Shown: in pieces, positions 3,800-63,636 of the stretch
How the letters are laid out: every line of letters starts with the position of its first letter
Numbering within the stretch: the first letter of the stretch is position 1
From: Candidatus Omnitrophota bacterium
GTDB lineage: Bacteria > Omnitrophota > Gorgyraeia > JAFGGP01
Direction of reading: 5' to 3'
Assembly (NCBI GenBank): GCA_016930485.1
Contig: JAFGGP010000050.1
Coordinates: forward strand, 15,370-79,369
DNA: 64,000 bases
The notes under the pieces: model-generated
What the model saw: only the letters and a program-made list of their open reading frames with translations
Databases searched by the model: none
What the model was told of the DNA's origin: nothing
Program-made: the position numbers and the translations under genes

Positions 3800-5077
3800 A
3801 TGAACACCACCAAGAAAACGATTGTGTGTGTGGCAATAGGCGTTGGTATCTGCGCTGTTCTTGCCGCTGGTGCCTCTATGATGTTTACCACAAGAGGTTC
3901 CCTTGCTTTGACGAAAGCCATGCTGACACACTATGTAAGGTCCGGCGACATTGATATTGCAAAGGCAAGCGGCACTCTTTCCAAAGAATTGCTATTCAAC
4001 GATATCGTCATTGCCGATCCCCAGGGTTTTCCCCGGGGTACAACCCTGACTATTCAAAAGATAAATATCCGGTTGGACATATTCTATCCGAGTGAAAGCA
4101 CTCTGGCGCTCCAGAACGGCACCCTGAGACTGCCAAACTCAGACCCAGTTCTTTTCTACGGAGGCTATAGAGATAACCGGTTAGATATTACCTTTTATGC
4201 GAAGGAACTTGATATCCGTGAACTATTAGACCTCTTTTCCGAAGCCTCGGATCTGAACGAGGTCTCCGGTGTTCTGAGAGATTGCGATGGCACTGTAAGA
4301 GGCACATTGTCAGCACCGGAGCTGAGTGGGTCTTTTTATATAACGGCGCTTTCCAGAAGGGCGTTTTCCGTGAAGGCCTGTCCGGGGACGTATACCCTAA
4401 GGCTCACGGATTTGGGGAAGGAAATCAGGATGTACGGCACGGTCCTGCTAGAAGGTGGCACTATTGCCGTTAATAAAACCCGTATTGCACTTGGACCAAG
4501 CACCGTTTCTTTTGAAGGCGACCCAACAACACCGACCTTTCATGTACAAGGTAGTTCGATTGTCGAAACTACAACCATCAATATTACCCTTAAAGGCGCC
4601 CTTCAAAACCCTGAGTTACTGTTGAGTTCGAATCCTCCATTGCCGCAGGTACAACTTATGCTGATGCTTGCTACCGGGAAGAGCTGGAAAGGGGCTCAGG
4701 TGGGATTAGAGCAGGGCAGGATTACCAGTGAGGTAGCCAGTGACTTTGTTGATTATTTTATTTTTGGAGGGACCGGAAATGCCCTGGTAAAGCGTTGTGG
4801 ATTGAACGCAGTTTCGCTCAGGCACGACGGCACCACGACCGGTGCAGGGGTTACGAAGTCTGTGTCAGATAGACTGACCGTTGGTTACGACGTGGAGCAG
4901 ACCCGGCAAAAAACCGGCGACGCCTCGACTACTCAAAAGATAGGTGCGTCCTATAAGGTGACCGATGAGGTCTCGGTCGATGCAGAAAAAGAGGTTAAGG
5001 TTGATGATAAGACCGGGCAGACCGAACAGCAAGAAGAAGAAGATAAGGTCTTCCTAAAATATAAAAGACAGTTTTAA
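3800..5077 (+). CDS. Membrane-anchored TamB/AsmA-like (DUF490-like) protein
   Basis: 425 aa with an N-terminal TM helix, a beta-rich repetitive body and a C-terminal region resembling the TamB DUF490 end (SDRLTVGYDVEQ). Terminal residue is Phe. Confidence 0.45.
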   Translation: MNTTKKTIVCVAIGVGICAVLAAGASMMFTTRGSLALTKAMLTHYVRSGDIDIAKASGTLSKELLFNDIVIADPQGFPRGTTLTIQKINIRLDIFYPSESTLALQNGTLRLPNSDPVLFYGGYRDNRLDITFYAKELDIRELLDLFSEASDLNEVSGVLRDCDGTVRGTLSAPELSGSFYITALSRRAFSVKACPGTYTLRLTDLGKEIRMYGTVLLEGGTIAVNKTRIALGPSTVSFEGDPTTPTFHVQGSSIVETTTINITLKGALQNPELLLSSNPPLPQVQLMLMLATGKSWKGAQVGLEQGRITSEVASDFVDYFIFGGTGNALVKRCGLNAVSLRHDGTTTGAGVTKSVSDRLTVGYDVEQTRQKTGDASTTQKIGASYKVTDEVSVDAEKEVKVDDKTGQTEQQEEEDKVFLKYKRQF

Positions 5078-7350: not shown

Positions 7351-8643
7351 GTGGAAAAGAGAAAAATCCTTTTTGTATCGCTTGATGCACTGATTAATGA
7401 CATCGCATGGCAGGTTACTAAAGAGGGCCATGAGGTTAAATATTATATCAAAAACCATGATGCCAAAGACGTTGCCGATGGACTGGTGCCCAAGACGGAT
7501 GACTGGAAGGCCGAGGTGGACTGGGCTGATCTTGTGATATTTGACGATGTATTAGGGCTGGGCAAGGAGGCTGAGGCGCTGCGCAAGAAGGGCAAGCTGG
7601 TAGTCGGGGGCACGGAGTACACCGATAAATTGGAGGATGACCGGACCTTCGGGCAGAACGAATTAAAAAGGGCGGGCGTTAATATACTTCCATTTCAGGA
7701 GTTTAGCTCTTTTGAAGAAGCGATTGAATTTGTCAGCCTAAATCCCAATCGCTACGTCATAAAACCGAGCGGAGAGGCCCAGAATATTAAACGGTTATTG
7801 TTTGTCGGGGAAGAAGAAGATGGTAAGGACGTTATTCAGGTCCTTGAGGCATATAAGAAGTCGTGGGCGAAGAAGATCAAGGTATTTCAGCTGCAAAAGA
7901 GAGTATCCGGCGTTGAGATTGCCGTTGGGGCGTTCTTCAACGGAAAGCAGTTTGTGTATCCGATTAATATTAACTTCGAACATAAAAAATTGTTCCCCGG
8001 GAACATCGGCCCATCAACCGGTGAAATGGGTACCTCCATGTATTGGAGCGGCGAAAACAAAATATTCAACGCGACATTAAAAAAGATGGAACCCCGTCTG
8101 TTAGAAGAGGGGTACCAAGGATACATAGATATCAATTGTATAGTCAATGCCAGCGGCATTTATCCTCTGGAGTTTACGGCGCGTTTCGGGTACCCCACCA
8201 TCAGCATACAGCAGGAAGGCATTTTGATGCCGATCGGCGAGTTTCTATACGGGCTGGCCGCGGGCGACATTACCGAGTTCAAGGCCAAAAAGGGATTTCA
8301 GGTAGGGGTGCGTATTGTTGTTCCCCCGTATCCGTTTCATGACCCACAGACATTTAATGCATACTCAAAAGACGCTGCGATTCTCTTCAAAAAACCCGGC
8401 CTCGAGGGTGTTCACATTGTCGACGTAAAACAGGTGAATGAGCAGTGGTGTATTGCCGGTGATTCAGGCGTGGTGCTTGTTGTGGTAGGGGCGGGCGGCA
8501 CATTGCGACAGGCGCAGATGCAGGCGTATAACCGGGTGAGTAATGTAATGATCCCGAATATGTATTTCAGGAAAGACATCGGCGACAGGTGGTACGAAGA
8601 CAGCGACCGACTCCATACCTGGGGGTATCTCCGGGAGGTGTGA
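7351..8643 (+). CDS. PurD-like ATP-grasp ligase (divergent paralog of GAR synthetase)
   Basis: 430 aa. GPSTGEMGTSM and EFTARFGYPT align with the GGMGAY and E(Y/F)N(V/A)RFGDPE motifs of the bona fide PurD at 43994..45286, with divergent substrate-binding regions. GTG start. Confidence 0.65.
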   Translation: MEKRKILFVSLDALINDIAWQVTKEGHEVKYYIKNHDAKDVADGLVPKTDDWKAEVDWADLVIFDDVLGLGKEAEALRKKGKLVVGGTEYTDKLEDDRTFGQNELKRAGVNILPFQEFSSFEEAIEFVSLNPNRYVIKPSGEAQNIKRLLFVGEEEDGKDVIQVLEAYKKSWAKKIKVFQLQKRVSGVEIAVGAFFNGKQFVYPININFEHKKLFPGNIGPSTGEMGTSMYWSGENKIFNATLKKMEPRLLEEGYQGYIDINCIVNASGIYPLEFTARFGYPTISIQQEGILMPIGEFLYGLAAGDITEFKAKKGFQVGVRIVVPPYPFHDPQTFNAYSKDAAILFKKPGLEGVHIVDVKQVNEQWCIAGDSGVVLVVVGAGGTLRQAQMQAYNRVSNVMIPNMYFRKDIGDRWYEDSDRLHTWGYLREV

Positions 8644-40324: not shown

Positions 40325-40334
40325 TAACTTTAAA

Positions 40335-40397
40335 AGCCTTCAGCCAGCAGCCTTCAGCCATCAGCCGCTGAAAGCTGACAGCTGACAGCTGAAAGCT
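40335..40397. repeat. Heptamer-unit hairpin ((NNTCAGC)x4 / (GCTGANN)x4)
   Basis: AGCCTTCAGCCAGCAGCCTTCAGCCATCAGC-C-GCTGAAAGCTGACAGCTGACAGCTGAAAGCT. The 5-nt cores pair and the 2-nt variable positions mostly do not. Confidence 0.85.
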
Positions 40398-40402
40398 AAA
40401 AA

Positions 40403-41269
40403 ATGAAAGAACTTATCGTAAAAACATGTGTACTTCGTGCCGCAGGGACGAACTGCGATAGAGAGACAGCCTATGCATTTGAACGCGCAGGCGCCCGATC
40501 GGAGATTATCCATATCAACCAGTTTGTCTCTCGCACCCGCACGCTGAACGAATTTCATATTCTGGCCATCCCGGGCGGATTTACCTATGGCGATGATGTT
40601 AGCTCAGGTAAGATACTGGCAAACGAACTGAAATATAATTTGTTTGATGATATCCGCCGCTTTGTAGAACAGGGGCGATTGATTATCGGTATCTGCAACG
40701 GCTTTCAAGTGCTGGTTAAATCGGGTCTCCTGCCGGATGTTGCCGGCGATTGTGAGATTGAGGCCTCACTTGTTTTAAATAACTCGGGCAAGTTCGAGGA
40801 CTGTTGGGTATATCTTAAACCTCCCCGGCCCATTACACGCTGTGTGTGGACGAACGGCATAGAGAGGGTTATCTATCTGCCTGTTGCGCACGGCGAAGGA
40901 AAGTTTGTGGTTAAGGGTAACACTGTACTTTCTTTACTCAAGGAGAATAACCAGATTGTATTTCGTTACTGTACCCCGGACGGCTCGCCAGGTCCGTTCC
41001 CGGTAAACCCCAACGGCTCGCTCGATGATATCGCCGGCATCTGTGACCCTACCGGCAGGATTTTAGGAATGATGCCACATCCGGAGAGGCACATTACTTT
41101 CTTTCATCATCCGCACTGGCACAGATGTTCCGAGAGAAAACAGGGTGACGGATTGAATATATTTGAGAACGGCGTTCAATATATTCAGAAGACGATACTT
41201 ACACAAGAATCAGGAGACATATCACAAGTCGCAGATAATGCAAATATCAAAAATCAAATGTCAAAATGA
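40403..41269 (+). CDS. purQ: FGAM synthase glutamine amidotransferase subunit
   Basis: GICNGFQ (Cys nucleophile) and MMPHPER motifs. The last ~15 codons run into the downstream repeat. Confidence 0.95.
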   Translation: MKELIVKTCVLRAAGTNCDRETAYAFERAGARSEIIHINQFVSRTRTLNEFHILAIPGGFTYGDDVSSGKILANELKYNLFDDIRRFVEQGRLIIGICNGFQVLVKSGLLPDVAGDCEIEASLVLNNSGKFEDCWVYLKPPRPITRCVWTNGIERVIYLPVAHGEGKFVVKGNTVLSLLKENNQIVFRYCTPDGSPGPFPVNPNGSLDDIAGICDPTGRILGMMPHPERHITFFHHPHWHRCSERKQGDGLNIFENGVQYIQKTILTQESGDISQVADNANIKNQMSK

Positions 41270-42932: not shown

Positions 42933-43915
42933 CCTATAAAAAAAGCGGTGTTGACGTAAAAAAGGCCGATCTATTTGTTCAGGGCATCCGATCGGTGATC
43001 GCCACAACTCCTCAGAGGGGCGTTCTGAGGGATGTAGGGTGTTTTGCGTCTCTCTACGATGCCGGACTTTCCCGCTACCGAAACCCCATTCTGGTCTCCT
43101 CCACGGACGGTGTCGGGACAAAAATAAAGATTGCCCGGCTGCTTAATTGTTACTCGACGATAGGCATCGACCTGGTGGCTATGAATGTGAATGATATTAT
43201 TACTGTCGGCGCACGACCCCTGTTTTTTCTGGACTATATTGCGACCGGCAGGGTGCGGCCTCGCCAGTTAACCGATATCGTCAGAGGTATCGCAGCGGGT
43301 TGCATTGAGGCGGACTGTGCCCTTTTGGGCGGGGAGACCGCCGAGATGCCCGGTATCTACCAGAAGGGAGACTTTGACCTGGCCGGTTTTTGTGTCGGGG
43401 TATGCGAAAAAAGACAGCTGCTTTCCCCGGAAAAGATGCGCCCCGGTGACCGGATTATCGGCGTTGCATCGAGCGGTGTTCACTCAAACGGCTTTTCGCT
43501 GGTGCGCAGGATATTCAGCGAGGGCTCACTCCGGAAGGATAAACACCTGGCAAAAGAACTGCTGACGCCGACACGCATTTATGTAAAATGTGTAGAGCGG
43601 GTTATGGCGCAATGCAGACTGCATGCTGTTATTCATGTTACCGGAGGCGGTTTCCACAGGAGGATTGTCACGTTCTTAAACCGTGTGCTTGGAAAAAGGG
43701 GGCGTGCCGAGGTGGATGTCAAGGCATGGCCGGCTCCCGAGATTTTTCGGGTCATCCAGAAGAAGGGTGGCATATCGACCCGTGAGATGTTTCATACGTT
43801 TAATATGGGGGTCGGGCTGGTTCTTGTCTGTGCCAGACAGGATACAGATAGGGCCCTGAACGCAGTGCAACAAAGCGGTTTTGATGCGTGGGTAATCGGG
43901 CGGATAACTAAATAG
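42917..43915 (+). CDS. purM: AIR synthetase
   Basis: LTYKKSGVD, DGVGTK, DMLAxNxND-like MNVNDIIT and GGETAEMPG motifs. 16-nt overlap with purF. Confidence 0.95.
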   Translation: MAVKLTYKKSGVDVKKADLFVQGIRSVIATTPQRGVLRDVGCFASLYDAGLSRYRNPILVSSTDGVGTKIKIARLLNCYSTIGIDLVAMNVNDIITVGARPLFFLDYIATGRVRPRQLTDIVRGIAAGCIEADCALLGGETAEMPGIYQKGDFDLAGFCVGVCEKRQLLSPEKMRPGDRIIGVASSGVHSNGFSLVRRIFSEGSLRKDKHLAKELLTPTRIYVKCVERVMAQCRLHAVIHVTGGGFHRRIVTFLNRVLGKRGRAEVDVKAWPAPEIFRVIQKKGGISTREMFHTFNMGVGLVLVCARQDTDRALNAVQQSGFDAWVIGRITK

Positions 43916-43980
43916 ACACAGGACACATGACACAAGACACAGGTAAAATACTTGTGACCTGTGACATGTGACCGGTGACT
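43916..43980. repeat. Heptamer-unit hairpin ((GACACAN)x4, TAAAATAC loop, (TGTGACN)x4)
   Basis: Begins at the base after the purM stop codon. Same family as 37381 and the intragenic array at 58274. Confidence 0.85.
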
Positions 43981-43993
43981 CGAAAAGATTATT

Positions 43994-45286
43994 ATGAAGA
44001 AAAAAGTACTGGTTATCGGTTCAGGCGGCAGGGAACACGCCCTGGTATGGAAGCTCTCGCAGAGTCATCGCGTCGGAAAGATATATGCAGTTCCGGGAAA
44101 CGGCGGGATGAGAGAGATGGCAGAGACTATCCCTATAGATGTCGGCGATCTTGAACAAATAGCTGTTTTTGCCAAGGAAAAAGGGATCGACTTAACTATT
44201 GTTGGCCCTGAGGCACCGCTTGTCAGTGGTATAGTTAACCTATTCAATGAAAATGGGTTACGAATATTCGGTCCGACAAAAGAGGCAGCACAATTAGAGG
44301 GGAGCAAGGTTTTTACCAAGCGGCTTCTTAAGGAGGCGGGTATCCCAACGGCCGACTTTCAGGTATGTGAGAATAGCAACGAGGCAAAGGCCTTTATTAA
44401 GGACAAAGGGGCCCCGTTAGTCATTAAGGCGGACGGTCTGTGTGCCGGCAAGGGTGTTATCGTAGCCCTCTCAGAGGAGGAGGCGCTTGCCGCGGTCGAT
44501 TCTATTATGATCGACCGGAAATTTGGCGCCAGCGGTTCGCAGATTTTGATTGAAGAACTTCTCACGGGGGAAGAGGCCTCTATTATTGCCTTTGTCGACG
44601 GCAGTGATTTTTTGCTGCTTCCCTCCTCCCAGGATCATAAGAGGGTCGGCGATAATGATACAGGGGCGAATACCGGCGGCATGGGGGCGTATTCACCGGC
44701 CCCGGTTATCACCGGGGAGCTTTTGAAAGAGATAGAAGAGACGGTAATCGCCCCGACTATCGCGGCGATGGGCAGGAAAGGCATGCTGTTTAACGGGGTG
44801 CTCTATTGCGGACTTATGATTACCCGAAGAGGTCCTCAGGTGTTGGAGTATAATGTGCGGTTCGGAGACCCGGAGGTTCAGGCGATACTGCCGCGTCTTA
44901 CAGGAGATCTTATGGAGTATCTTGAGGCAACCGTTGACGGTACCCTGGCGCAGCAAACCGTTACCGTTGACCAAAGAGATTGTGTGTGCGTCGTTCTCGC
45001 CTCGGGCGGTTATCCGGAGAATTATGAAAAGGGAAAGGTAATTACCGGGCTTGAGAAAATAAGGAACCGGGAGGATGTTATTGTATTTCATGCGGGCACC
45101 AGACAGGGGACGGACACCCTTCTGACAAACGGGGGCAGGGTGTTAAATGTGGTCGCCCTTGGTGACGGGATAGAGCAGGCTATCGATACCGCCTACGCCG
45201 CTATCAGGGATATCCGTTTTGAGGGGATGTATTACAGGAGCGATATAGGATTCCGGGCATTACAAAGAAATAATCTAAAACCCTAA
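43994..45286 (+). CDS. purD: GAR synthetase
   Basis: MKKKVLVIGSGGREHAL, GANTGGMGAY and EYNVRFGDPE motifs. Confidence 0.95.
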   Translation: MKKKVLVIGSGGREHALVWKLSQSHRVGKIYAVPGNGGMREMAETIPIDVGDLEQIAVFAKEKGIDLTIVGPEAPLVSGIVNLFNENGLRIFGPTKEAAQLEGSKVFTKRLLKEAGIPTADFQVCENSNEAKAFIKDKGAPLVIKADGLCAGKGVIVALSEEEALAAVDSIMIDRKFGASGSQILIEELLTGEEASIIAFVDGSDFLLLPSSQDHKRVGDNDTGANTGGMGAYSPAPVITGELLKEIEETVIAPTIAAMGRKGMLFNGVLYCGLMITRRGPQVLEYNVRFGDPEVQAILPRLTGDLMEYLEATVDGTLAQQTVTVDQRDCVCVVLASGGYPENYEKGKVITGLEKIRNREDVIVFHAGTRQGTDTLLTNGGRVLNVVALGDGIEQAIDTAYAAIRDIRFEGMYYRSDIGFRALQRNNLKP

Positions 45287-47148: not shown

Positions 47149-47512
47149 CCGCCAGTTCACGAGTTATCGAGTTGAACATGGTTAGCGAGTTAGCCAGTTC
47201 GCGGGTTAGCGGGTTCACCAGTTAACGAGTTGGAAATAGTGAACGAGTTTGCCGGTTCTACCCTTCGACTTTGCTCAGGGCAGGCGAGTTCACGAGTTCT
47301 TCTTTAGCGTGCAGCCCTTTGATAAACTCAGGACAAGCGATTAGCGGCTAGCGTATAGAAAAAGAAAAAATCTAACCACTAAACGCTATCCGCTAGACGC
47401 TATAACGAACCCGAAGAACCCGTTGAACTCGAAGAACCAATGAACTATTTTTAAACCCGAGCAACTCGAAGAACCCGCGAACCCGGGCAACCCAAAGAAC
47501 TTTGAGGAGCAG
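47149..47512. repeat. Composite repeat region (about 360 nt) with CGAGTTN/GAACTCG heptamer arms and inner TAGCG/CGCTA hairpin
   Basis: Left arm is CAGTTCACGAGTTATCGAGTTGAAC... and right arm is GAACCCGAAGAACCCGTTGAACTCGAAGAACC... . Also contains CCTTCGACTTTGCTCAGGGCAGGC modules shared with 41270. Confidence 0.8.
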
Positions 47513-47515
47513 GCA

Positions 47516-47974
47516 ATGAAAATCGCTATCGGATCAGATCACAGAGGCTACCCGTTAAAACAGGAATTGATCGCTTTTCTGAAGGAAAAAGGCCATGAGG
47601 TAACAGATCTCGGAACCGATAGCACCGACAGTTGCGATTATCCACTCTACAGTTTCGCAGTGGCGCGCGCAGTGAGCAATGGGGCGGCCGAGTGCGGCAT
47701 TGTCGTGTGCAATACAGGGATTGGTGTCTCTATGGTTGCGAACAAGATTAGAGGGGTGCGTGCGGCACTGTGTTATGAGACAGCCGCCGCCTCTACCGCC
47801 AGGCGGCACAACAATGCCAACGTTCTGGCGCTGGGGGCGGGCTACCTTACCGCTCGGACGGCCAAGGAGATAACACAGGCGTTTTTAACCGGGCAATTTG
47901 AAGGCGGAAGGCACAAGAGACGCGTTGATCAGATAAGCGATATAGAAAATCAGACAGAAGACAATAGACTATAG
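47516..47974 (+). CDS. rpiB: Ribose-5-phosphate isomerase B
   Basis: MKIAIGSDHRGY, VCNTGIGVSMVANK and RRHNNANVLALG motifs. Confidence 0.93.
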   Translation: MKIAIGSDHRGYPLKQELIAFLKEKGHEVTDLGTDSTDSCDYPLYSFAVARAVSNGAAECGIVVCNTGIGVSMVANKIRGVRAALCYETAAASTARRHNNANVLALGAGYLTARTAKEITQAFLTGQFEGGRHKRRVDQISDIENQTEDNRL

Positions 47975-48300
47975 ACCAAGAGTTAAAAAGGGCACCAGTG
48001 ACTTTCAATGACAGATGACAAATTTCCCTGCTAAAGAGCTGGCAGGCAAATGACAAATGAATCGTTTAATGACAAATCCCAAAAAAAGAAATAAAAAGAT
48101 TTTTTGATTTATTTACCCGTCTCGCCACACTGTGTGGCGAGATATCGCCTTTGGCGGAAAAGCTGAGCGCTGAGAGCTAAAAGCTTAAAAAATACATAGT
48201 TCGCGAGTTCGCGGGTTGAAAGTAGTTAACAAAGCGAGTTCTTGGGTTTTTTGAACTCGAAGAACCCGTGAACCCAAATAACCCGAGGAACCAGTAAAAG
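47975..48300. repeat. Composite repeat region mixing AATGACA, GCTGAG and GAGTTC/GAACTC heptamer arrays plus a CTCGCCACA/TGTGGCGAG hairpin
   Basis: Read directly. Shares unit families with 40335, 47149 and 49588. Confidence 0.75.
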
Positions 48301-48309
48301 GAGTACGAG

Positions 48310-49587
48310 ATGTTTCTTAAGACATTGCGAGAGGTCGACCCTGAAATTTTTGATATTATCTTCGATGAGACAAGGCGTCAGCACGAGAATATCGAGTTAA
48401 TTGCGAGCGAAAACTTTACCTCGGAGGCGGTGCTTGAGGCGCAGGGCTCGGTTCTGACCAACAAGTATGCCGAGGGCTACCCGGCGGCCCGCTGGTACGG
48501 GGGATGTGAAAATGTGGACCGGGCCGAAGGCCTCGCGATTGAACGCGCAAAGAAATTATTTGGGGCCGAACACGTCAATGTACAACCGCATTCCGGGACA
48601 CAGGCCAATATCGCCGTGTATCTTGCCGCGCTTGAGGTGGGCGACGGCCTGATGGCCATGGATCTTGCCTGCGGCGGACACCTGACGCATGGACACCCGC
48701 TGAATATCTCCGGCAGATTTTATCGGATTATCCCGTATGGGGTGAGCCGCCAGAGCGAGCAGATCGACTATGATGAACTCGCGCAGACAGCCAGACGCGA
48801 GAAACCAAAGATGATCCTTGCCGGAGCAAGCGCCTATCCGCGCACTATCGACTTTGACACATTTAAGGAAATCGCCGATAGCGTCGGGGCGCTGCTTATG
48901 GTAGACATGGCGCATATTGCCGGGCTGGTTGCGGCAGGACTACATCCGTCTCCGGTGCGGATGTCCGATTACGTCACCACCACTACCCACAAGACGCTTC
49001 GTGGTCCCCGCGCAGGCATGATTCTGTGCAAAGAGGCATATGCAAAACGGATTGACCGGGATGTCTTTCCCGGTAATCAGGGCGGCCCGTTAATGCATGT
49101 TATTGCCGCAAAAGCAGTTGCACTCAAAGAGGCGCTGGAGCCCCGTTTTAAGGAGTATCAAGGGCAGATCGTTGCCAATGCCAGAACCTTGGCTGAGGAG
49201 TTGGCGGGGTTGGGCTACCGGATTGTCTCGGGCGGGACCGATAATCATCTGATGCTCGTCGATGTCCTGACGAGCCGCTCCATTACCGGCAAGGCCGCCG
49301 CGACCGCTCTCGACAGGGTAAAGATCACGGTCAATAAAAATCTGATACCGTTTGATGAAAAGTCACCCTTTGTCACCAGCGGCATCAGACTGGGCACGCC
49401 GGCGGCGACGAGCCGCGGGATGAAGGAGCCCGAAATGAAAAAAATCGCCGCTATCATCGATGCTACTTTGTCGGCCCCGGAGGACGAGGCGGTCATAGAA
49501 AAGTCTAGGAGACAGATTGCGGAGTTAACCGAACAGTTTCCGTTGTATGCCGAACGCCGGGAAGCCATGGCACTCGTCGCGAAGTAA
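48310..49587 (+). CDS. glyA: Serine hydroxymethyltransferase
   Basis: [15 protein letters not shown] and [12 protein letters not shown] (PLP Lys) motifs. Confidence 0.96.
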
Positions 49588-49815
49588 CCACTTCGCAATG
49601 GTAGATGTCAAATCTCAAATGACAAATGAATCACTCAAATCTAAATGACAAACACGTCTGTCATCCCGTGCTGCGACACGGGATGACAGAGAAATGTAGC
49701 CCCCATTTTGATGTGGGGGAAAATGGATTCCGGAGCAAATCCGGAATGACTCGGATTCTATTTGGATTTTAAAGATTCATTTGGGTTTTGACATTTTGAT
49801 TTTGGAATTTGAATA
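49588..49815. repeat. Multi-branch composite element: outer AAATGAC/GTCATTT-type arms enclosing three internal hairpins
   Basis: Internal hairpins are CTGTCATCCCGTG-CTGCGA-CACGGGATGACAG (13 bp perfect), CCCCCAT...ATGTGGGGG and ATTCCGG-AGCAAAT-CCGGAAT. The outer arms are TCAAATGACAAATGAATCACTCAAATCTAAATGACAAA and TTTGGATTTTAAAGATTCATTTGGGTTTTGACATTTTGATTTTGG. Confidence 0.8.
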
Positions 49816-55341: not shown

Positions 55342-55674
55342 ATGAAAGACTCTACCGTATTTGATAAAAATCCCGATATCGTAAGCCGGACTATAGAAGA
55401 TGAAACTATCCTTCTGCCGGTTTACAGAACCTCGGAGGAAATTAACTGTCTTTATACCCTGAATGAATCGGCGGCGGCTGTCTGGGATTTAATCGACGGC
55501 AGGCGGTCATTGGGGGAGATTAAAGAGGCAATGCTCAGGCAATTTGAAGCGACGCCCGAAGAGATAGATAAGGAGATGGGAATTCTCTTGAAAGATTTAA
55601 CCGAGATCAAGGCCATTACCCCGGTCAAAGAAACAAAGGGCGCAGGGCGCGCGGGGCGGGCCACTCATACATGA
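55342..55674 (+). CDS. PqqD family protein (RiPP recognition element-like)
   Basis: 110 aa with the typical PqqD pattern DIVSRTIEDETILL...LNESAAAVWDLIDGRRSLGEI...EIDKEMGILLKDL. SD GGGAGG lies before the ATG at 55342. Confidence 0.8.
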   Translation: MKDSTVFDKNPDIVSRTIEDETILLPVYRTSEEINCLYTLNESAAAVWDLIDGRRSLGEIKEAMLRQFEATPEEIDKEMGILLKDLTEIKAITPVKETKGAGRAGRATHT

Positions 55675-56855
55675 AACACATAGAAACAGCCCATTTCTAC
55701 AGCAGGCTATACGATAAAGAAGAGCAGCGCCCCTATTCCGGGCAGCTCGAACTCACCTACCGCTGCGATCTCGACTGCATTCATTGTTACTGCAAGGGCT
55801 CGGAAGAGGTACCAAGTCACAGGTCACAGGTCGCAGATCACAGGTCGAAATTAACAGAGGAAACTTTTCCGAAAAAAAAAGAACTAACTACCATTCAATG
55901 GAAAAGGATTTTAGACGAAGTCCAAAAAGAAGGATGCCTCTGCCTTACCCTGACCGGCGGAGAGCCCTTGATCAGGGATGACTTTCTTGAGATCTACGGT
56001 TACGCGAAAAGGCTCGGTTTTATCATTACCATTTTTACCAACGGCCAGTCATTGACGAATGAGATTATTGACTATCTGGAAAAATACCCGCCCTTTTCGA
56101 TAGAAATTACCCTTAACGGCATTACAAAAAATACCTACGAATCGATTACCCGGGTTGACGGTTCCTTTGAAAGGGTGATGGAAAATATCCGTGCCCTCCG
56201 CGCGAGGAGATTGCCTCTTATTATAAAGGCGAACTGCCTGAAACAAAACAGACACGAGATCGCAAAAATAAAACAATGGGCAGAAGATTTACTGGGAAAA
56301 TCAGCTAAAATGACTGAGATGTGTGACGTGCGACCTGAGACATGTGACATTAGAAAGTATAATTTTAAATACGACCCCATGATTTTCCCCCGACTCAATG
56401 GAGACAGGGCCCCGTGCGAGCACCGACTTTCTTTTGAGGAGTTGACACAGCTCCGCCGGCAGGACCCGGATATCTGGGGAGAGTATCGGGAAGGATGCGA
56501 GGCCGGGCTGCCGGATTTGACACGGGAGGCGCGGTTTCTCTACCGTTGTAACGCCTGGATGAAACATTTTTTTATTAATCCTTACGGCAGGCTGAAGTTC
56601 TGTCAGTTTAGTGAGAAATTCAGCGTTGATTTAAGGGAGACGTCGTTTCACGAGGGCTTTTACCGGGCTTTTCCGAAACTCCTAACCCCAACATTTACGA
56701 CAGATTCGCGCTGCCAGCATTGCTCGCTTCGCCCCCTATGCTACCATTGCCCGGCGCGCGCATATCTCGAGACAGGAAACGAGGAGGCGCCGGTACCGTA
56801 TTACTGTGAATTGGCAAAACATATAGCAGATCAAATAAAATTGCTAAATTGTTAA
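55671..56855 (+). CDS. Radical SAM/SPASM-type peptide maturase (paralog 1)
   Basis: CDLDCIHCY (CX3CX2C), LTGGEPL and a C-terminal Cys cluster CQHCSLRPLCYHCPARAY. ATGA overlap with pqqD. Carries two heptamer-array insertions. Confidence 0.85.
   Translation: MKHIETAHFYSRLYDKEEQRPYSGQLELTYRCDLDCIHCYCKGSEEVPSHRSQVADHRSKLTEETFPKKKELTTIQWKRILDEVQKEGCLCLTLTGGEPLIRDDFLEIYGYAKRLGFIITIFTNGQSLTNEIIDYLEKYPPFSIEITLNGITKNTYESITRVDGSFERVMENIRALRARRLPLIIKANCLKQNRHEIAKIKQWAEDLLGKSAKMTEMCDVRPETCDIRKYNFKYDPMIFPRLNGDRAPCEHRLSFEELTQLRRQDPDIWGEYREGCEAGLPDLTREARFLYRCNAWMKHFFINPYGRLKFCQFSEKFSVDLRETSFHEGFYRAFPKLLTPTFTTDSRCQHCSLRPLCYHCPARAYLETGNEEAPVPYYCELAKHIADQIKLLNC
55816..55850. repeat. Intragenic heptamer array (GTCACAG-like x5), in frame in radical SAM 1
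   Basis: GTCACAG GTCACAG GTCGCAG ATCACAG GTCGAAA encodes SHRSQVADHRS. The segment is absent from the paralog at 57418. Confidence 0.85.
56324..56358. repeat. Intragenic heptamer array (CTGTGAC-like x5), inverted copy of 55816..55850
   Basis: CTGAGAT GTGTGAC GTGCGAC CTGAGAC ATGTGAC encodes part of TEMCDVRPETCD. Its reverse complement matches 26 of 35 positions of the first array. Confidence 0.8.
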
Positions 56856-56965
56856 ACTGATGCGTTGTTACATTGATAAACCGCTAAACTGTTTTATTGT
56901 TAAATTGTTTCATTGCTTAATTGTTGCGCTGATGCATTGTTAAATTGCTACAGCATTGAGAGAGT
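56856..56965. repeat. Heptamer-unit array (AATTGTT-like), left arm flanking the four-helix-bundle ORF
   Basis: TGTTAAACTG...TTGTTAAATTGTTTCATTGCTTAATTGTTGCGCTGATGCATTGTTAAATTGC. Confidence 0.75.
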
Positions 56966-56968
56966 AAG

Positions 56969-57344
56969 ATGAAAAAATATTTAGAGTTAAACGATATAGA
57001 TGCTTACCGAATTGCTTTGGATTTGTCTAATTATATTTGGAACATTGTTATCAAATGGGATTATTTTGCCAAAGATACCGTCGGCAAACAGTGGGCCAAA
57101 GCTATTGATTCTATCTCGGCTAATATTGCCGAAGGTTTTGACAGGTATTTTAAAAAAGATAAAGTTACTTTTTATCGTTACAGTTATGGTTCTATTAATG
57201 AATCTTTAGATTGGCTTGAAAAGGCAAATAGACGAACCTTGTTAAAAAAACAATGAATATCAACATATACTGAAGGAATTAAAAAAATTGCCAAAAGAAA
57301 TTCATGCATTAATTAATTTTACTAATGAACGCCTCAAAAAGTAA
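56969..57344 (+). pseudogene. Four-helix-bundle protein (23S rRNA intervening-sequence protein family), apparent +1 frameshift in an A7 run
   Basis: The N-terminal 95 aa (LDLSNYIWNIV...ISANIAEGFDRY...FYRYSYGSINESLDWLEKA) match the family. Frame 0 stops at 57254-57256. The expected C-terminus (NEYQHILKELKKLPKEIHALINFTNERLKK) continues in the +1 frame at 57252..57344. The A7 run is at 57244-57250. Confidence 0.6.
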
Positions 57345-57417
57345 CAGTTTAACAATTTGTCAGTGAAGCAGTTAGGAATTAAACGATACAACAATGGAGC
57401 AGGGCAGCAATTGAACA
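57345..57417. repeat. Heptamer-unit array (AACAATT-like), right arm complementary to 56856..56965
   Basis: CAGTTTAACAATTTGTCAG...CAGCAATTGAACAATGG, ending at the radical SAM 2 start codon. Confidence 0.7.
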
Positions 57418-58614
57418 ATGGAATATAAAGATTACGACCAATTTTGGCAAAAGATACATCAGTCCGCACGGGAAAAAGGTGTGCCGCTGCGTGTAATGTT
57501 TGAACTGACCTACCGGTGCAATTTTAACTGTGCTCACTGTTATATACCGACTGATTTTCGAACAAAGGGTGAGCTGACTACGCAAGAGGTGTTTTCCGTG
57601 CTTGATCAGCTCAAGGCGGCCGGGTGCTTTTATCTGGGGTTTACCGGCGGTGAGCCGTTCATGCGCGCTGACTTCATGGATATCCTCTGGTATGCTAAGC
57701 GCGCCGGGTTTCAGGTGATTATCTATACCAACGGATCGTTGATCGATGAGAAGAAAGCCGCGGCATTGGCGAAGTTCAGCCCGAATAAAGTGGACATTAC
57801 CATACCCGCCTTGAGCAAAGAGGCCTTTGAGCGCATTACCGGGGTAACAGGCTATTGGGACAGGGTATTTCATGCAATTGACCTGCTGCATAGCCTCGGT
57901 GTTCCTCTGGGGTTTAAGACATGCCTTTTGAGGGAAAACGAGTTGGAGATTGCTCAGATACAGGAATTTGCCGCCTCTTTAGGGTCGCTGTATCGTCTGG
58001 ATACAATGCTTTCCCCGCGGCTGGATGGGGATCCAGAACCGTACTGTTATAGGGGTACATTACATTTAGCCAAAAGTCATGGAATGCCAGCTATAAGTAA
58101 TAGAATGACAAATTTCAAATGCCAAATGACAAATGAATTCCAAATGTCAAATGACAAATTAAAAGACAAAAATATTTTATTTACATGTGGCGCGGGAAGG
58201 ACGCAGGCCGCTGTCACGCCGCTTGGTGAACTGAAGCTATGTGTGATAATCGACCGGCCGAAAATTACAATAGACACAGGACACATGACACAGGACACAA
58301 GAGAAAACTTACAAATAACACGTAACACGTCGCACGTCACACGTAATAAAAATGAGGGGGTGTCGCTGAGTGAAGCATGGGAGAAGTTAAAAGAGACAAC
58401 AGAGAATATAGAAGCGGGTAAAAAGCATCAGTGCCCGGAATGCGAGCTTGCACCGTATTGCAAGTGGTGTCCGGCGCAGAGCTGGCTGGCACATGGGACG
58501 TTTACAGGATGCGTTCCGGAAAGCCGTGCCTGGGCACAGATGGTGCAAGAGTCGCTTTGCAGTGACAGAGAAAAAATGCTCAAGGGGTATCAGTCTAAGG
58601 CAGGTATCATATAA
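57418..58614 (+). CDS. Radical SAM/SPASM-type peptide maturase (paralog 2)
   Basis: CNFNCAHCY, FTGGEPF and a C-terminal CPECELAPYCKWCPAQSW cluster. Carries two heptamer-array insertions. Confidence 0.85.
   Translation: MEYKDYDQFWQKIHQSAREKGVPLRVMFELTYRCNFNCAHCYIPTDFRTKGELTTQEVFSVLDQLKAAGCFYLGFTGGEPFMRADFMDILWYAKRAGFQVIIYTNGSLIDEKKAAALAKFSPNKVDITIPALSKEAFERITGVTGYWDRVFHAIDLLHSLGVPLGFKTCLLRENELEIAQIQEFAASLGSLYRLDTMLSPRLDGDPEPYCYRGTLHLAKSHGMPAISNRMTNFKCQMTNEFQMSNDKLKDKNILFTCGAGRTQAAVTPLGELKLCVIIDRPKITIDTGHMTQDTRENLQITRNTSHVTRNKNEGVSLSEAWEKLKETTENIEAGKKHQCPECELAPYCKWCPAQSWLAHGTFTGCVPESRAWAQMVQESLCSDREKMLKGYQSKAGII
58104..58170. repeat. Intragenic heptamer array (AATGACA-like), in frame in radical SAM 2
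   Basis: AATGACA AATTTCA AATGCCA AATGACA AATGAAT... encodes NRMTNFKCQMTNEFQMSNDKLKD. Same unit as the intergenic arrays at 47990 and 49600. Confidence 0.85.
58274..58345. repeat. Intragenic heptamer arrays ((GACACAN)x4 then (NACACGT)x4), in frame in radical SAM 2
   Basis: Encodes DTGHMTQDTRENLQITRNTSHVTRN. The first half nearly duplicates the left arm at 43916, and the second resembles the left arm at 63489. Confidence 0.85.
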
Positions 58615-59656: not shown

Positions 59657-59807
59657 CACATTATGGCTCATTTCGCCTCGGCCAAAACGCTCGGTAAATC
59701 TCTTCGATGTTTACCCTCGCTGGCTCGAGGCATACATTCGCCCCCGCTGATTCGTTTTGAGAAGTAAAACGAATCAAAACGACGGGGGCTCATTTAAAGG
59801 AGGGTAT

Positions 59808-60020
59808 ATGTCTCAACAGAAAGAATTTAAACCTGTTATAACTCGCGTGGAGCTTAGCCCCGAACAGGCGGTGCTGCAGTGCAGTTGTTACACTAGTGGC
59901 AGGGTATGGAATAAAGTGAAATTGCCCGGTACGGACGCTTATGCCTGTTCCGACTATAACGTTAAGCAGCTCACCTCCGGGTGGGTACCCTATGATGTTG
60001 GGGTTTCAGGTTCTTCGTAG
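59808..60020 (+). CDS. Candidate RiPP precursor peptide 1 (70 aa)
   Basis: MSQQKEFKPVITRVELSPEQAVLQCSCYTSGRVWNKVKLPGTDAYACSDYNVKQLTSGWVPYDVGVSGSS. SD AAAGGAGGG lies before the ATG at 59808. Its N-terminal 33 residues are about 70% identical to the ORF at 61576. Confidence 0.6.
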   Translation: MSQQKEFKPVITRVELSPEQAVLQCSCYTSGRVWNKVKLPGTDAYACSDYNVKQLTSGWVPYDVGVSGSS

Positions 60021-61575: not shown

Positions 61576-61773
61576 ATGCCTCGTAAAATGAAATTCCGGC
61601 CTGTTGTTACACGCGTAGAACTCAGCCCTGAACAGGCGGTATTGGCGTGCGCTTGTTATAGTTCCGGCCATGTGATAAATACCGCAGGCCACGGAACTTC
61701 TGGTTCCGCTTGTGTGTATGCCACAAAGACCACTCAAAACGGCTACTATGACGGTGATGCAACTTCCACATAA
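61576..61773 (+). CDS. Candidate RiPP precursor peptide 2 (65 aa)
   Basis: MPRKMKFRPVVTRVELSPEQAVLACACYSSGHVINTAGHGTSGSACVYATKTTQNGYYDGDATST. SD AAAGGAGGA. Paralog of 59808..60020. Confidence 0.6.
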   Translation: MPRKMKFRPVVTRVELSPEQAVLACACYSSGHVINTAGHGTSGSACVYATKTTQNGYYDGDATST

Positions 61774-63476: not shown

Positions 63477-63488
63477 ATAACAGCATTA

Positions 63489-63636
63489 GTCACACGTAGC
63501 ACGTTGCAGGTAACACGTCGCACGTAACGCAGGAAAGGCACAATCAGTTTCCGCGGGACGTGATACTTGTTATGTTTACTTGATGCGGATAATATAGAAC
63601 CTGATACCTGCTACGTGATACTTGATAAAATGAAAC
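63489..63636. repeat. Heptamer-unit imperfect hairpin (CACGTAN arm / NTACGTG-GATAC arm)
   Basis: TCACACGTAGCACGTTGCAGGTAACACGTCGCACGTAACGCAGG ... GACGTGATACTTG...CTACGTGATACTTGAT. Confidence 0.65.

Follow-up and report, generated by a model that had tools for sequence, protein, structure and literature searches.

We have found that rSAM2, a radical SAM/SPASM gene in a 64,000-nt stretch of contig from an Omnitrophota metagenome-assembled genome (MAG), carries three in-frame tandem arrays of 7-nt units, that these arrays share exact strings with intergenic DNA, and that they lie in two linkers at which orthologues carry different arrays, likewise in frame. We refer to the whole stretch as the window, and coordinates given without a locus label are positions in it. 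The reading that we favour, and consider probable, is that permissive linkers harbour dispersed, slippage-prone arrays whose translation yields disordered loops, with selection filtering nothing more than reading frame, stop triplets and one linker cysteine. 

Under this reading the three arrays would be whole or partial copies of short tandem arrays that populate the entire genome, built of 7-nt units (sometimes 8-10 nt) in which a constant core of 5-6 nt is joined to 1-2 variable bases and which, between genes, would form inverted pairs that fold as hairpins. In rSAM2 they would occupy the sole two places that are free in length, namely the linker between the barrel and the SPASM domain and a gap inside the SPASM domain, where they would be transcribed and translated as low-complexity, probably disordered, loops, and where they may persist because both linkers accept any polar sequence. 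The arrays would change by copying between loci, to which exact strings shared between loci point, and by slippage, which length steps and a 25-nt duplication suggest; the changes that survive would be net multiples of 3 nt (typically three units, that is 21 nt or 7 aa), would be free of stop triplets and would keep the linker cysteine. We infer the mechanism of slippage and copying, the translation of the arrays, the disorder of the loops and the absence of a function for them. If this is correct, a non-triplet repeat has lived long in a conserved enzyme with signatures of selection (21-nt steps, stop-free units and a cysteine codon carried as a variant unit), and the case would provide a natural experiment in how disordered segments of proteins arise from selfish or slippage-prone DNA and in where SPASM enzymes tolerate insertions.

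Heptamer arrays in two hypervariable linkers

A preliminary description of this DNA, made by reading the letters, had pointed to in-frame period-7 arrays and low-complexity peptides in rSAM2. Both Tandem Repeats Finder (TRF) and translation of the open reading frame (ORF) agree with it. TRF reports period-7 arrays at 58104-58170 (AATGACA, 10.3 copies, 69% matches), 58273-58299 (GACACAG, 90%) and 58316-58346 (TAACACG, 83%), together with a 25-nt duplication inside the first of them (58111-58159, 91% matches). The translation reads ...ISNRMTNFKCQMTNEFQMSNDKLKDKNILF... in insert 1 and ...ITIDTGHMTQDTRENLQITRNTSHVTRNKNEGV... in insert 2, and the peptide stretches encoded by the inserts include QMTNEFQMSNDK and ENLQITR. 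NNCAAAT and NNCACGT describe the units best, each as a constant core with a variable dinucleotide. The features of the gene that matter here are as follows.

57418-58614, plus strand: rSAM2, the radical SAM/SPASM gene of 398 aa that hosts the arrays (ORF; PF04055/PF13353).
58057-58176, plus strand: site 1, a hypervariable linker (aa 214-253) from the radical SAM core (PYxYRG) to the start of the SPASM domain (LFxCGxG) (alignments; predicted local distance difference test score, pLDDT, below 50 at residues 197-262).
58104-58170, plus strand: array 1, about nine units NNCAAAT in the AATGACA register (TRF).
58120-58122, plus strand: TGC (Cys221) in the variant unit AATGCCA, where the consensus would give an in-frame TGA (sequence reading; aligns with the linker cysteine).
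58159-58161, plus strand: TTA at the second would-be in-frame TGA (sequence reading; frame checked against the translation).
58267-58365, plus strand: site 2, in the SPASM domain, from a beta-hairpin (DxPKI) to SLxxAW (alignments; pLDDT below 50 at residues 294-312).
58270-58300, plus strand: array 2a, four GACACAN units of the family of the left arm of the hairpin at 43913 (TRF and a 23-nt identity).
58316-58346, plus strand: array 2b, four NNCACGT units of the family of the left arm of the element at 63487-63628 (TRF and a 15-nt identity).

Array 1 has a GC content of 25%, as against 50% in the remainder of rSAM2, and site 2 is 33 aa long, as against 6 aa in the insert-free state. Each of the three arrays shares an exact string with intergenic DNA of the window, and in each case about zero such matches are expected by chance. 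Array 2a has the 23-nt string ATAGACACAGGACACATGACACA at 58270 in common with 43912-43934, array 1 has the 16-mer CAAATGACAAATGAAT at 58123 in common with 48047 and 49616, and array 2b has the 15-nt string TAACACGTCGCACGT at 58323 in common with 63511-63525. The intergenic counterparts are these, with fold strength given as z against shuffled sequences.

43913-43980, no strand assigned: intergenic hairpin (GACACAN)4-loop-(TGTGACN)4 with one mismatch per unit (fold -27.5 kcal/mol, z -6.2, on the plus strand; -33.7 kcal/mol, z -7.3, on the minus strand).
48047-48062, plus strand: intergenic copy of the array-1 family, with another at 49602-49631 (exact-string match).
63487-63628, plus strand: hairpin element made of (NNCACGT)n...(ACNTGAT)n, which stops 2 nt short of the ATG at 63630 of a third radical SAM paralogue (z -4.0).

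The inserts in rSAM2 themselves do not fold (z 0.09 and -0.23 against shuffles, compared with -4 to -7 for the intergenic elements). Since the intergenic copies are hairpin arms and the inserts are unfolded, the earlier characterization of insert 2 as left-arm types without right arms is correct. The same description had both inserts absent from rSAM1, a paralogue of rSAM2 at 55671-56855 with 27% identity; this is true of insert 2, which aligns to gaps, but insert 1 faces an unrelated linker of similar length in rSAM1.

Comparison with orthologues, which had been proposed as a check, provides stronger evidence than the stop-avoiding substitution discussed below, and shows different arrays at the same two linkers, always in frame. 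For this comparison we used 584 kb of DNA, comprising the window and 33 other Omnitrophota loci (labelled L002, L003 and so on), with the insert sites located by alignment-based mapping, and a set of 120 homologous proteins for the length and composition of the sites. The closest relatives of rSAM2 are 46-60% identical to it, and in all of them length varies at these two sites. Site 1 ranges from 24 to 76 aa (median 37) and site 2, measured from DYPKYKI to SLKxAW, from 5 to 43 aa, with 41 of the 120 homologues at a base state of 6 aa, so that the site-2 insert is dispensable. The arrays found at these sites in orthologues are made of unrelated units, among them ACAGAGA in L003, CGTCCCT in L006, CATCGTA, CACAATA and the 8-mer GTCACCAG in L009, and 10-mers ACGCGAATNN in L002 and L007; L005 has CGGTTAT and CGAACAC arrays, with complete hairpins at both sites, and L003 has a complete (NNCACGT)n...(ACCTGNN)n hairpin at a site. 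Of 34 genes, 12 have period-7 arrays at site 1 and 5 have them at site 2. In all, 17 arrays fall in 4.5 kb of site DNA (3.75 per kb) and 3 in 32 kb of core (0.09 per kb), a difference of about 40-fold. All of the site arrays in orthologues are in frame, and 32 of the 33 orthologues are open through both sites. The remaining one, L028, changes frame at 4209-4236, exactly at site 1 and at a place where it has no array; this break could be a pseudogene mutation or an assembly error.

The lengths of site 2 in the 120 homologues cluster at 6, 12/13, 19/20, 27 and 33 aa, and of the 73 inserts that exceed 9 aa, 48 have a value of 0 or 6 for (length - 6) mod 7 (chi-square p=1e-10, a test that ignores phylogeny). 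Steps of about 7 aa fit the gain and loss of units where solely three units (21 nt) are frame-neutral. It could be argued that rSAM2 is instead a contingency locus, in which the change of a single 7-nt unit shifts the frame ahead of the SPASM cysteines and so switches the maturase off or on. A 7-nt unit does not divide into triplets, the length steps show that units have been gained and lost in evolution, and heptanucleotide repeats have been tied to slippage (Mrazek 2007, as summarised in PMC4679880). The arrays, however, comprise just 4-9 units that match imperfectly (69-90%), unlike known contingency tracts, the orthologues are in frame with the one exception at which there is no array, and no phase variation is seen among the alleles available: a collection of 5.8 billion proteins holds a single rSAM2 sequence, and the sole further contig, a Logan contig assembled from run SRR13394437 and possibly derived from the same reads as the MAG, is 100% identical to the window over 10,150 nt. 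We regard phase variation as very unlikely.

In the 120 homologues, the residues N, S, T, R and Q are over-represented in the inserts, and F, W, Y and M are under-represented. A composition like that of disordered linkers, the recurrence of inserts at the same two sites in most homologues, and the precedent of Borg tandem repeats, which make disordered regions under selection (PMC9879509), are what might be expected if the protein used the loops, for example as heptad-periodic, polar and disordered docking or spacer segments for a precursor peptide or for partners encoded in the same cassette. We think this quite unlikely. The inserts are not conserved between orthologues, different unit families give different peptides, one third of the homologues have no site-2 insert, and the peptide is dictated by DNA units that are shared with non-coding hairpins. 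The earlier suggestion that the proteins tolerate or use the loops thus holds for tolerance, whereas for use it finds nothing to draw on, the insert sequences being unrelated between species.

Stop triplets and the linker cysteine

The repeats in the window are dominated by one period, more so than chance would give. At one fixed threshold the window yields nine period-7 arrays, periods 3-6, 8 and 10-13 being unrepresented, and the 584 kb of Omnitrophota DNA yield 60 arrays of period 7, 26 of period 8 and at most nine for other non-multiple periods. The consensus unit is free of stop triplets in all phases of the coding strand in 25 of 30 arrays within ORFs, compared with 20 of 42 strand-instances of 21 intergenic or edge arrays (Fisher p=0.003); array 1 of rSAM2 and an array of rSAM1 (insert B, below) are two of the five ORF arrays with a stop-containing consensus. 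Some 44% of the frames through intergenic arrays are open, so that a stop-free insertion in frame is not a rare event. What emerges is a filter on survival that acts on the frame, the orientation and the type of unit; directed repair is unnecessary to explain it.

Within rSAM2, the preliminary description had drawn attention to a substitution placed exactly where a consensus unit would create an in-frame TGA, and the codon at 58120-58122 does indeed read TGC. The pattern extends to the other junctions. The second would-be TGA of array 1 reads TTA, and the sole in-frame T+NN junction of array 2b, at 58330-58332, is TCG rather than TAA, whereas the out-of-frame T+NN triplets are TGA in 4 of 6 cases in array 1 and TAA in 3 of 4 in array 2b. 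Taken together, none of three in-frame junctions and 7 of 10 out-of-frame junctions are stops (Fisher p=0.07), and 8.6% of shuffles of unit order remain open. Stop avoidance is therefore true but weak, a real pattern that is not significant alone, and the test is partly circular because the ORF was chosen for being open. We do not accept the substitution as sound evidence of selection after insertion. The changed bases at 58120 fall in the dinucleotide that varies naturally in these families (NNCAAAT, NNCACGT), the codon specifies a conserved cysteine, the p values lie at about 0.07-0.09, and open frames are common in intergenic arrays anyway. Moreover, the intergenic copy at 63511 already has the stop-avoiding CG unit of array 2b, which was not made by selection acting after insertion. 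Of the broader proposal that purifying selection keeps the ORF open after invasion by repeats, the invasion is borne out by the shared intergenic families and the open gene by the 32 of 33 orthologues; the argument from the stop-avoiding substitution is what falls away.

The TGC codon is better understood through its cysteine. The Cys221 column is kept in 100 of 107 homologues (93%) amid hypervariable surroundings, which makes TGC a functional codon and not merely a non-stop one. In L005 the linker cysteine is likewise supplied by a variant unit, TCGATTG, within a (TCGGTTA)n array. Among the seven homologues without the cysteine is P0078, which has ...LDYRLS... where relatives have ...DCRLS..., and a tyrosine at this position is what the consensus unit of that family specifies. 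Homogenisation of the array and retention of a useful linker cysteine seem here to be in conflict. The cysteine may possibly serve as an eighth ligand of an auxiliary cluster.

An ORF that is open merely by luck, in a decaying pseudogene or through an assembly artefact, might also look like this: about 9% of unit-order shuffles are open, and the adjoining TIGR02436 gene (below) is frameshifted. Yet the catalytic and SPASM cysteines of rSAM2 are intact and invariant, the same architecture is open in 32 orthologues, and the Logan contig agrees exactly with the window over 10,150 nt, even if it may rest on the same reads. We consider this explanation extremely unlikely. With the radical SAM and SPASM cysteines all in frame, rSAM2 appears to have been kept open and looks functional. 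PF04055 is matched, and the radical SAM motif CX3CX2C (C34/C38/C41) is invariant in the orthologue alignment, as are the columns of the SPASM cysteines C257, C275, C339, C342, C348, C351 and C365. Their spacing (C257-x12-G270-x4-C275; C339xxC342x5C348xxC351; C365) fits the seven-cysteine SPASM motif CX9-15GX4C...CX2CX5CX3C...C, except that the third spacing is CX2C, not CX3C.

Complementary arrays and bracketed small genes

Arrays also occur in rSAM1 and around a small gene that lies between rSAM1 and rSAM2.

55807-55847, plus strand: rSAM1 insert A, (GTCACAG)4, in frame just after CX3CX2C (TRF, alignment).
56314-56352, plus strand: rSAM1 insert B, (TGTGACN)4, in frame and complementary to insert A (duplex).
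56838-57415, plus strand: a frameshifted TIGR02436 four-helix-bundle gene (56969-57330) within complementary octamer arrays (56838-56925 and ~57340-57415) (TIGR02436 E=1e-16; duplex -50 kcal/mol, z -5.5).

Several observations weigh against the reading in which permissive linkers simply tolerate the arrays. The internal coding arrays of the window are confined to rSAM1 and rSAM2 (4-5 arrays in 4% of the coding DNA, p ~1e-5), which means that simple tolerance is not the full explanation; in other loci, coding arrays likewise fall in cassette genes. The NNCACGT/ACGTGNN family recurs in distant genomes (L002, L003, L005 and the window), which is unusual for repeats that arise in place. The AlphaFold model of rSAM2 (35 sequences) has a mean pLDDT of 62, is poor in its SPASM part and, against an otherwise confident core, falls below 50 at the inserts, and we used it solely to flag these as low in confidence. 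Their in-frame position in hypervariable linkers is shown, but their exposure at the surface rests on low pLDDT in a weak model, and a disordered surface loop is for this reason weakly supported. Lastly, rSAM1 inserts A and B, which lie 465 nt apart, can form a duplex of -44.8 kcal/mol (z -7.3; duplex energies are calculated array to array), and insert B is the exact reverse complement, over 14 nt, of 58329-58342 in array 2b of rSAM2. This complementarity, together with the arrays that bracket small genes, could point to a role at the level of RNA or DNA, although the pairing is not conserved across orthologues.

The arrays in coding sequence could, then, be functional nucleic-acid elements, acting either through RNA pairing (rSAM1 insert A with insert B, and insert B with rSAM2 arrays 2a and 2b) that controls mRNA processing or translation, or as inverted repeats in DNA that allow intragenic inversion. 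The duplexes in question (A with B, and B with 2b at -35.2 kcal/mol, z -7.9) are at least as strong as that of a real intergenic hairpin, the two arms of the 43913 element giving -29.6 kcal/mol. The rSAM1 insert sites of L023 are complementary too (z -3.3), full hairpins lie within the coding sequence of L003 and L005, whole small genes are bracketed in the window, L015, L006 and L019 in the manner of the stems of rRNA intervening sequences (IVS; PMC4990558), and intragenic invertons are a known phenomenon (PMC10028968). On the other hand, the site-1 arrays of the window, L006, L009 and L019 are unpaired (z 0 to +2.5), most rSAM1 orthologues have no inserts, and no invertase or other machinery was identified beside the arrays. 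Cross-pairing, moreover, arises automatically where one family occurs in both orientations in a genome. The evidence from rSAM1 elsewhere is mixed: the window and L023 pair, whereas the sites of L005 do not (z +1.2), and we have rejected conserved long-range pairing of the rSAM1 inserts as the main explanation. We judge a nucleic-acid role, which in its RNA version would act for example through RNase III as in rRNA IVS, to be unlikely overall.

The brackets themselves are not limited to the window. The TIGR02436 gene in the window is frameshifted at an A7 run (~57243-57249), and its orthologues in L006 and L005 are intact. Complementary heptamer arrays flank TIGR02436 genes of the same cassette in L015 (9575-9996) and L006 (6993-7446), and flank a TIGR04256 GxxExxY gene, again in the same cassette, in L019 (7276-7741). 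With the array-to-array test, brackets are found around four of seven small genes (those of the window, L015, L006 and L019). A whole-flank duplex test on 180-nt flanks is insensitive, and we therefore prefer the array-to-array test; the small gene of L007 reaches z -4.4 in the whole-flank test alone. It is conceivable, if doubtful, that what we see is an active, phylum-wide repeat system, in which inverted array stems would bracket, and perhaps mobilise or process, TIGR02436 and TIGR04256 genes much as in rRNA IVS, while arms in coding sequence would pair across the operon transcript or invert, so controlling expression of the peptide-maturation cassette through RNA cleavage or DNA inversion at sites that would be translated as well. 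Stems made of arrays could help to explain the spread of these very common and unexplained small genes. In 23S rRNA, an IVS carries an S23p/four-helix-bundle ORF within a stem that is cut by RNase III (PMC4990558). The TIGR02436 element, as distinct from the rSAM2 inserts, resembles this in that a small gene is enclosed, as a loop, by complementary flanks that would pair as a long stem. It differs in that its stem is made of tandem 7-8-nt units, and it is not within 23S rRNA: it sits between protein genes, and an Rfam scan of the whole window finds no rRNA and no family at gathering score. The TIGR02436 gene also resembles Avd of diversity-generating retroelements, a candidate we set aside because the variation is not adenine-specific; no search was made for a reverse transcriptase or for a template/variable repeat pair.

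Known repeat systems and the gene cassette

The classic case of in-frame repeats in conserved proteins is that of the Rickettsia palindromic elements (RPEs), single palindromic elements of about 100-150 bp. Ogata and colleagues are said to have described them, in 2000 and 2002, as inserted in frame in protein-coding genes. The elements are also mentioned in PMC10969869. Like RPEs, the rSAM2 arrays belong to dispersed families that are present both in non-coding DNA, as the shared exact strings of 15-23 nt show, and in frame in conserved proteins, and they occupy probably permissive positions at which the added peptide segment leaves the host protein undestroyed. Unlike RPEs, the rSAM2 inserts lack a palindrome, being arrays of 7-nt units that represent single arms without a hairpin, and the sites hold different families in different species and change in length by 7 aa. 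Reading the flanks of 43913 and 58270 reveals no evident target-site duplication, and no systematic test for miniature inverted-repeat transposable elements was made.

A second comparison is with simple repeats. Among the long simple repeats of repeat-rich prokaryotes, those with a heptanucleotide unit are the commonest, and their origin has been attributed to slippage of the polymerase (PMC4679880). TAACTGA repeats are found in Beggiatoaceae, Cyanobacteria and Bacteroidetes, mostly ahead of start codons, and within ORFs they occur at protein ends or in hypothetical proteins, in the stop-free orientation only (PMC4679880). The Omnitrophota arrays share with such heptanucleotide long simple sequence repeats, with the short tandemly repeated repetitive sequences of cyanobacteria and with TAACTGA repeats the head-to-tail arrangement of 7-nt units in excess of other periods, a mostly intergenic location that often ends just before a start codon, and an orientation within ORFs that is limited by stop triplets. 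One Omnitrophota family, (TCGGTTA)n, even differs by just one base from TAACTGA read in reverse, and its peptide is of a similar LSVI.Y. kind. What sets the Omnitrophota arrays apart is that they are not near-perfect copies of a single unit (69-90% matches, with systematic variation at one or two unit positions), and that there are many unit families per genome, inverted pairs, and arrays inside conserved enzymes.

Two further systems involve repeats within coding sequence. Borg tandem repeats within ORFs are perfect and have a unit length that is always divisible by three (PMC9879509). They resemble the rSAM2 arrays as fast-evolving repeats that add likely disordered, polar segments, but the rSAM2 unit of 7 nt rotates the frame, so that only triplets of units are neutral and the peptide repeats with a period of 7 aa after three units. 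Phase-variable contingency loci share with rSAM2 a unit within the coding sequence that is not a multiple of three, whereas the rSAM2 arrays are imperfect and short and no variation in copy number is observed. The literature that we could search yielded nothing on heptamer arrays in Omnitrophota and nothing that links TIGR02436 or GxxExxY genes to tandem-array stems. Nor did that literature yield a description of the combination seen here, in which a non-triplet unit, many variable families and inverted-array hairpins between genes go together with arrays that, throughout a phylum, recur in the same two internal linkers of a conserved enzyme. There is also a practical side: inserts of this kind make homologues look more divergent than they are, and gene callers and alignments can be misled by them in Omnitrophota metagenome assemblies.

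The cassette to which rSAM2 belongs includes a PqqD-like gene, rSAM1, a ScmC/HprK-like gene, glycosyltransferases, two small cysteine-containing ORFs that resemble precursors, and the third radical SAM paralogue, which starts at 63630. The gene order is akin to that of the SynChlorMet cassette, but the NCBIfam models do not assign it there, ScmE and ScmF scoring 66.8 and 62.9 bits against a cut-off of 400 (TIGR04250/TIGR04251) and the neighbours ScmC and ScmD scoring 24.3 against 125 bits and 21.8 against 100. The other NCBIfam matches of rSAM2 to SPASM maturases are likewise all under their cut-offs. Profile matches of rSAM2 to PDB entries (SkfB, PqqE, MoaA) span the radical SAM core alone, to about residue 199, and the insert sites can thus not be placed on a solved SPASM structure. 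The two small ORFs, at 59757-60020 and 61576-61773, have the motif ..V(I/V)TRVELSPEQAVL.C.CY.. in common and probably encode the cassette's precursor peptides; L015 has a similar ORF at 8245-8505. 

We note some further features of the intergenic arrays. Elements related to 63487-63628 stand directly upstream of small precursor-like ORFs in L005 (12623-12694 and 14451-14529), which suggests that elements of this type may have a role in 5' untranslated regions. The hairpins at 43905-43990 and 40325-40415 are more stable as minus-strand RNA (-39.7 versus -29.7 kcal/mol for the latter), although their neighbouring genes run on the plus strand; both hairpins have one mismatch in each 7-nt unit. 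The spacers around rpiB (47516-47974) and glyA (48310-49587), at 47150-47515, 47975-48300 and 49602-49631, are packed with arrays of 7-, 8- and 9-nt units (GTTNNCGA, GAACCCGNN, NNCAAAT), some of which are mutually complementary. An AAATCCT unit family is common to position 16225 of L008 and position 45277 of the window, which come from distantly related Omnitrophota, and this too would not be expected of simple repeats arising in place.

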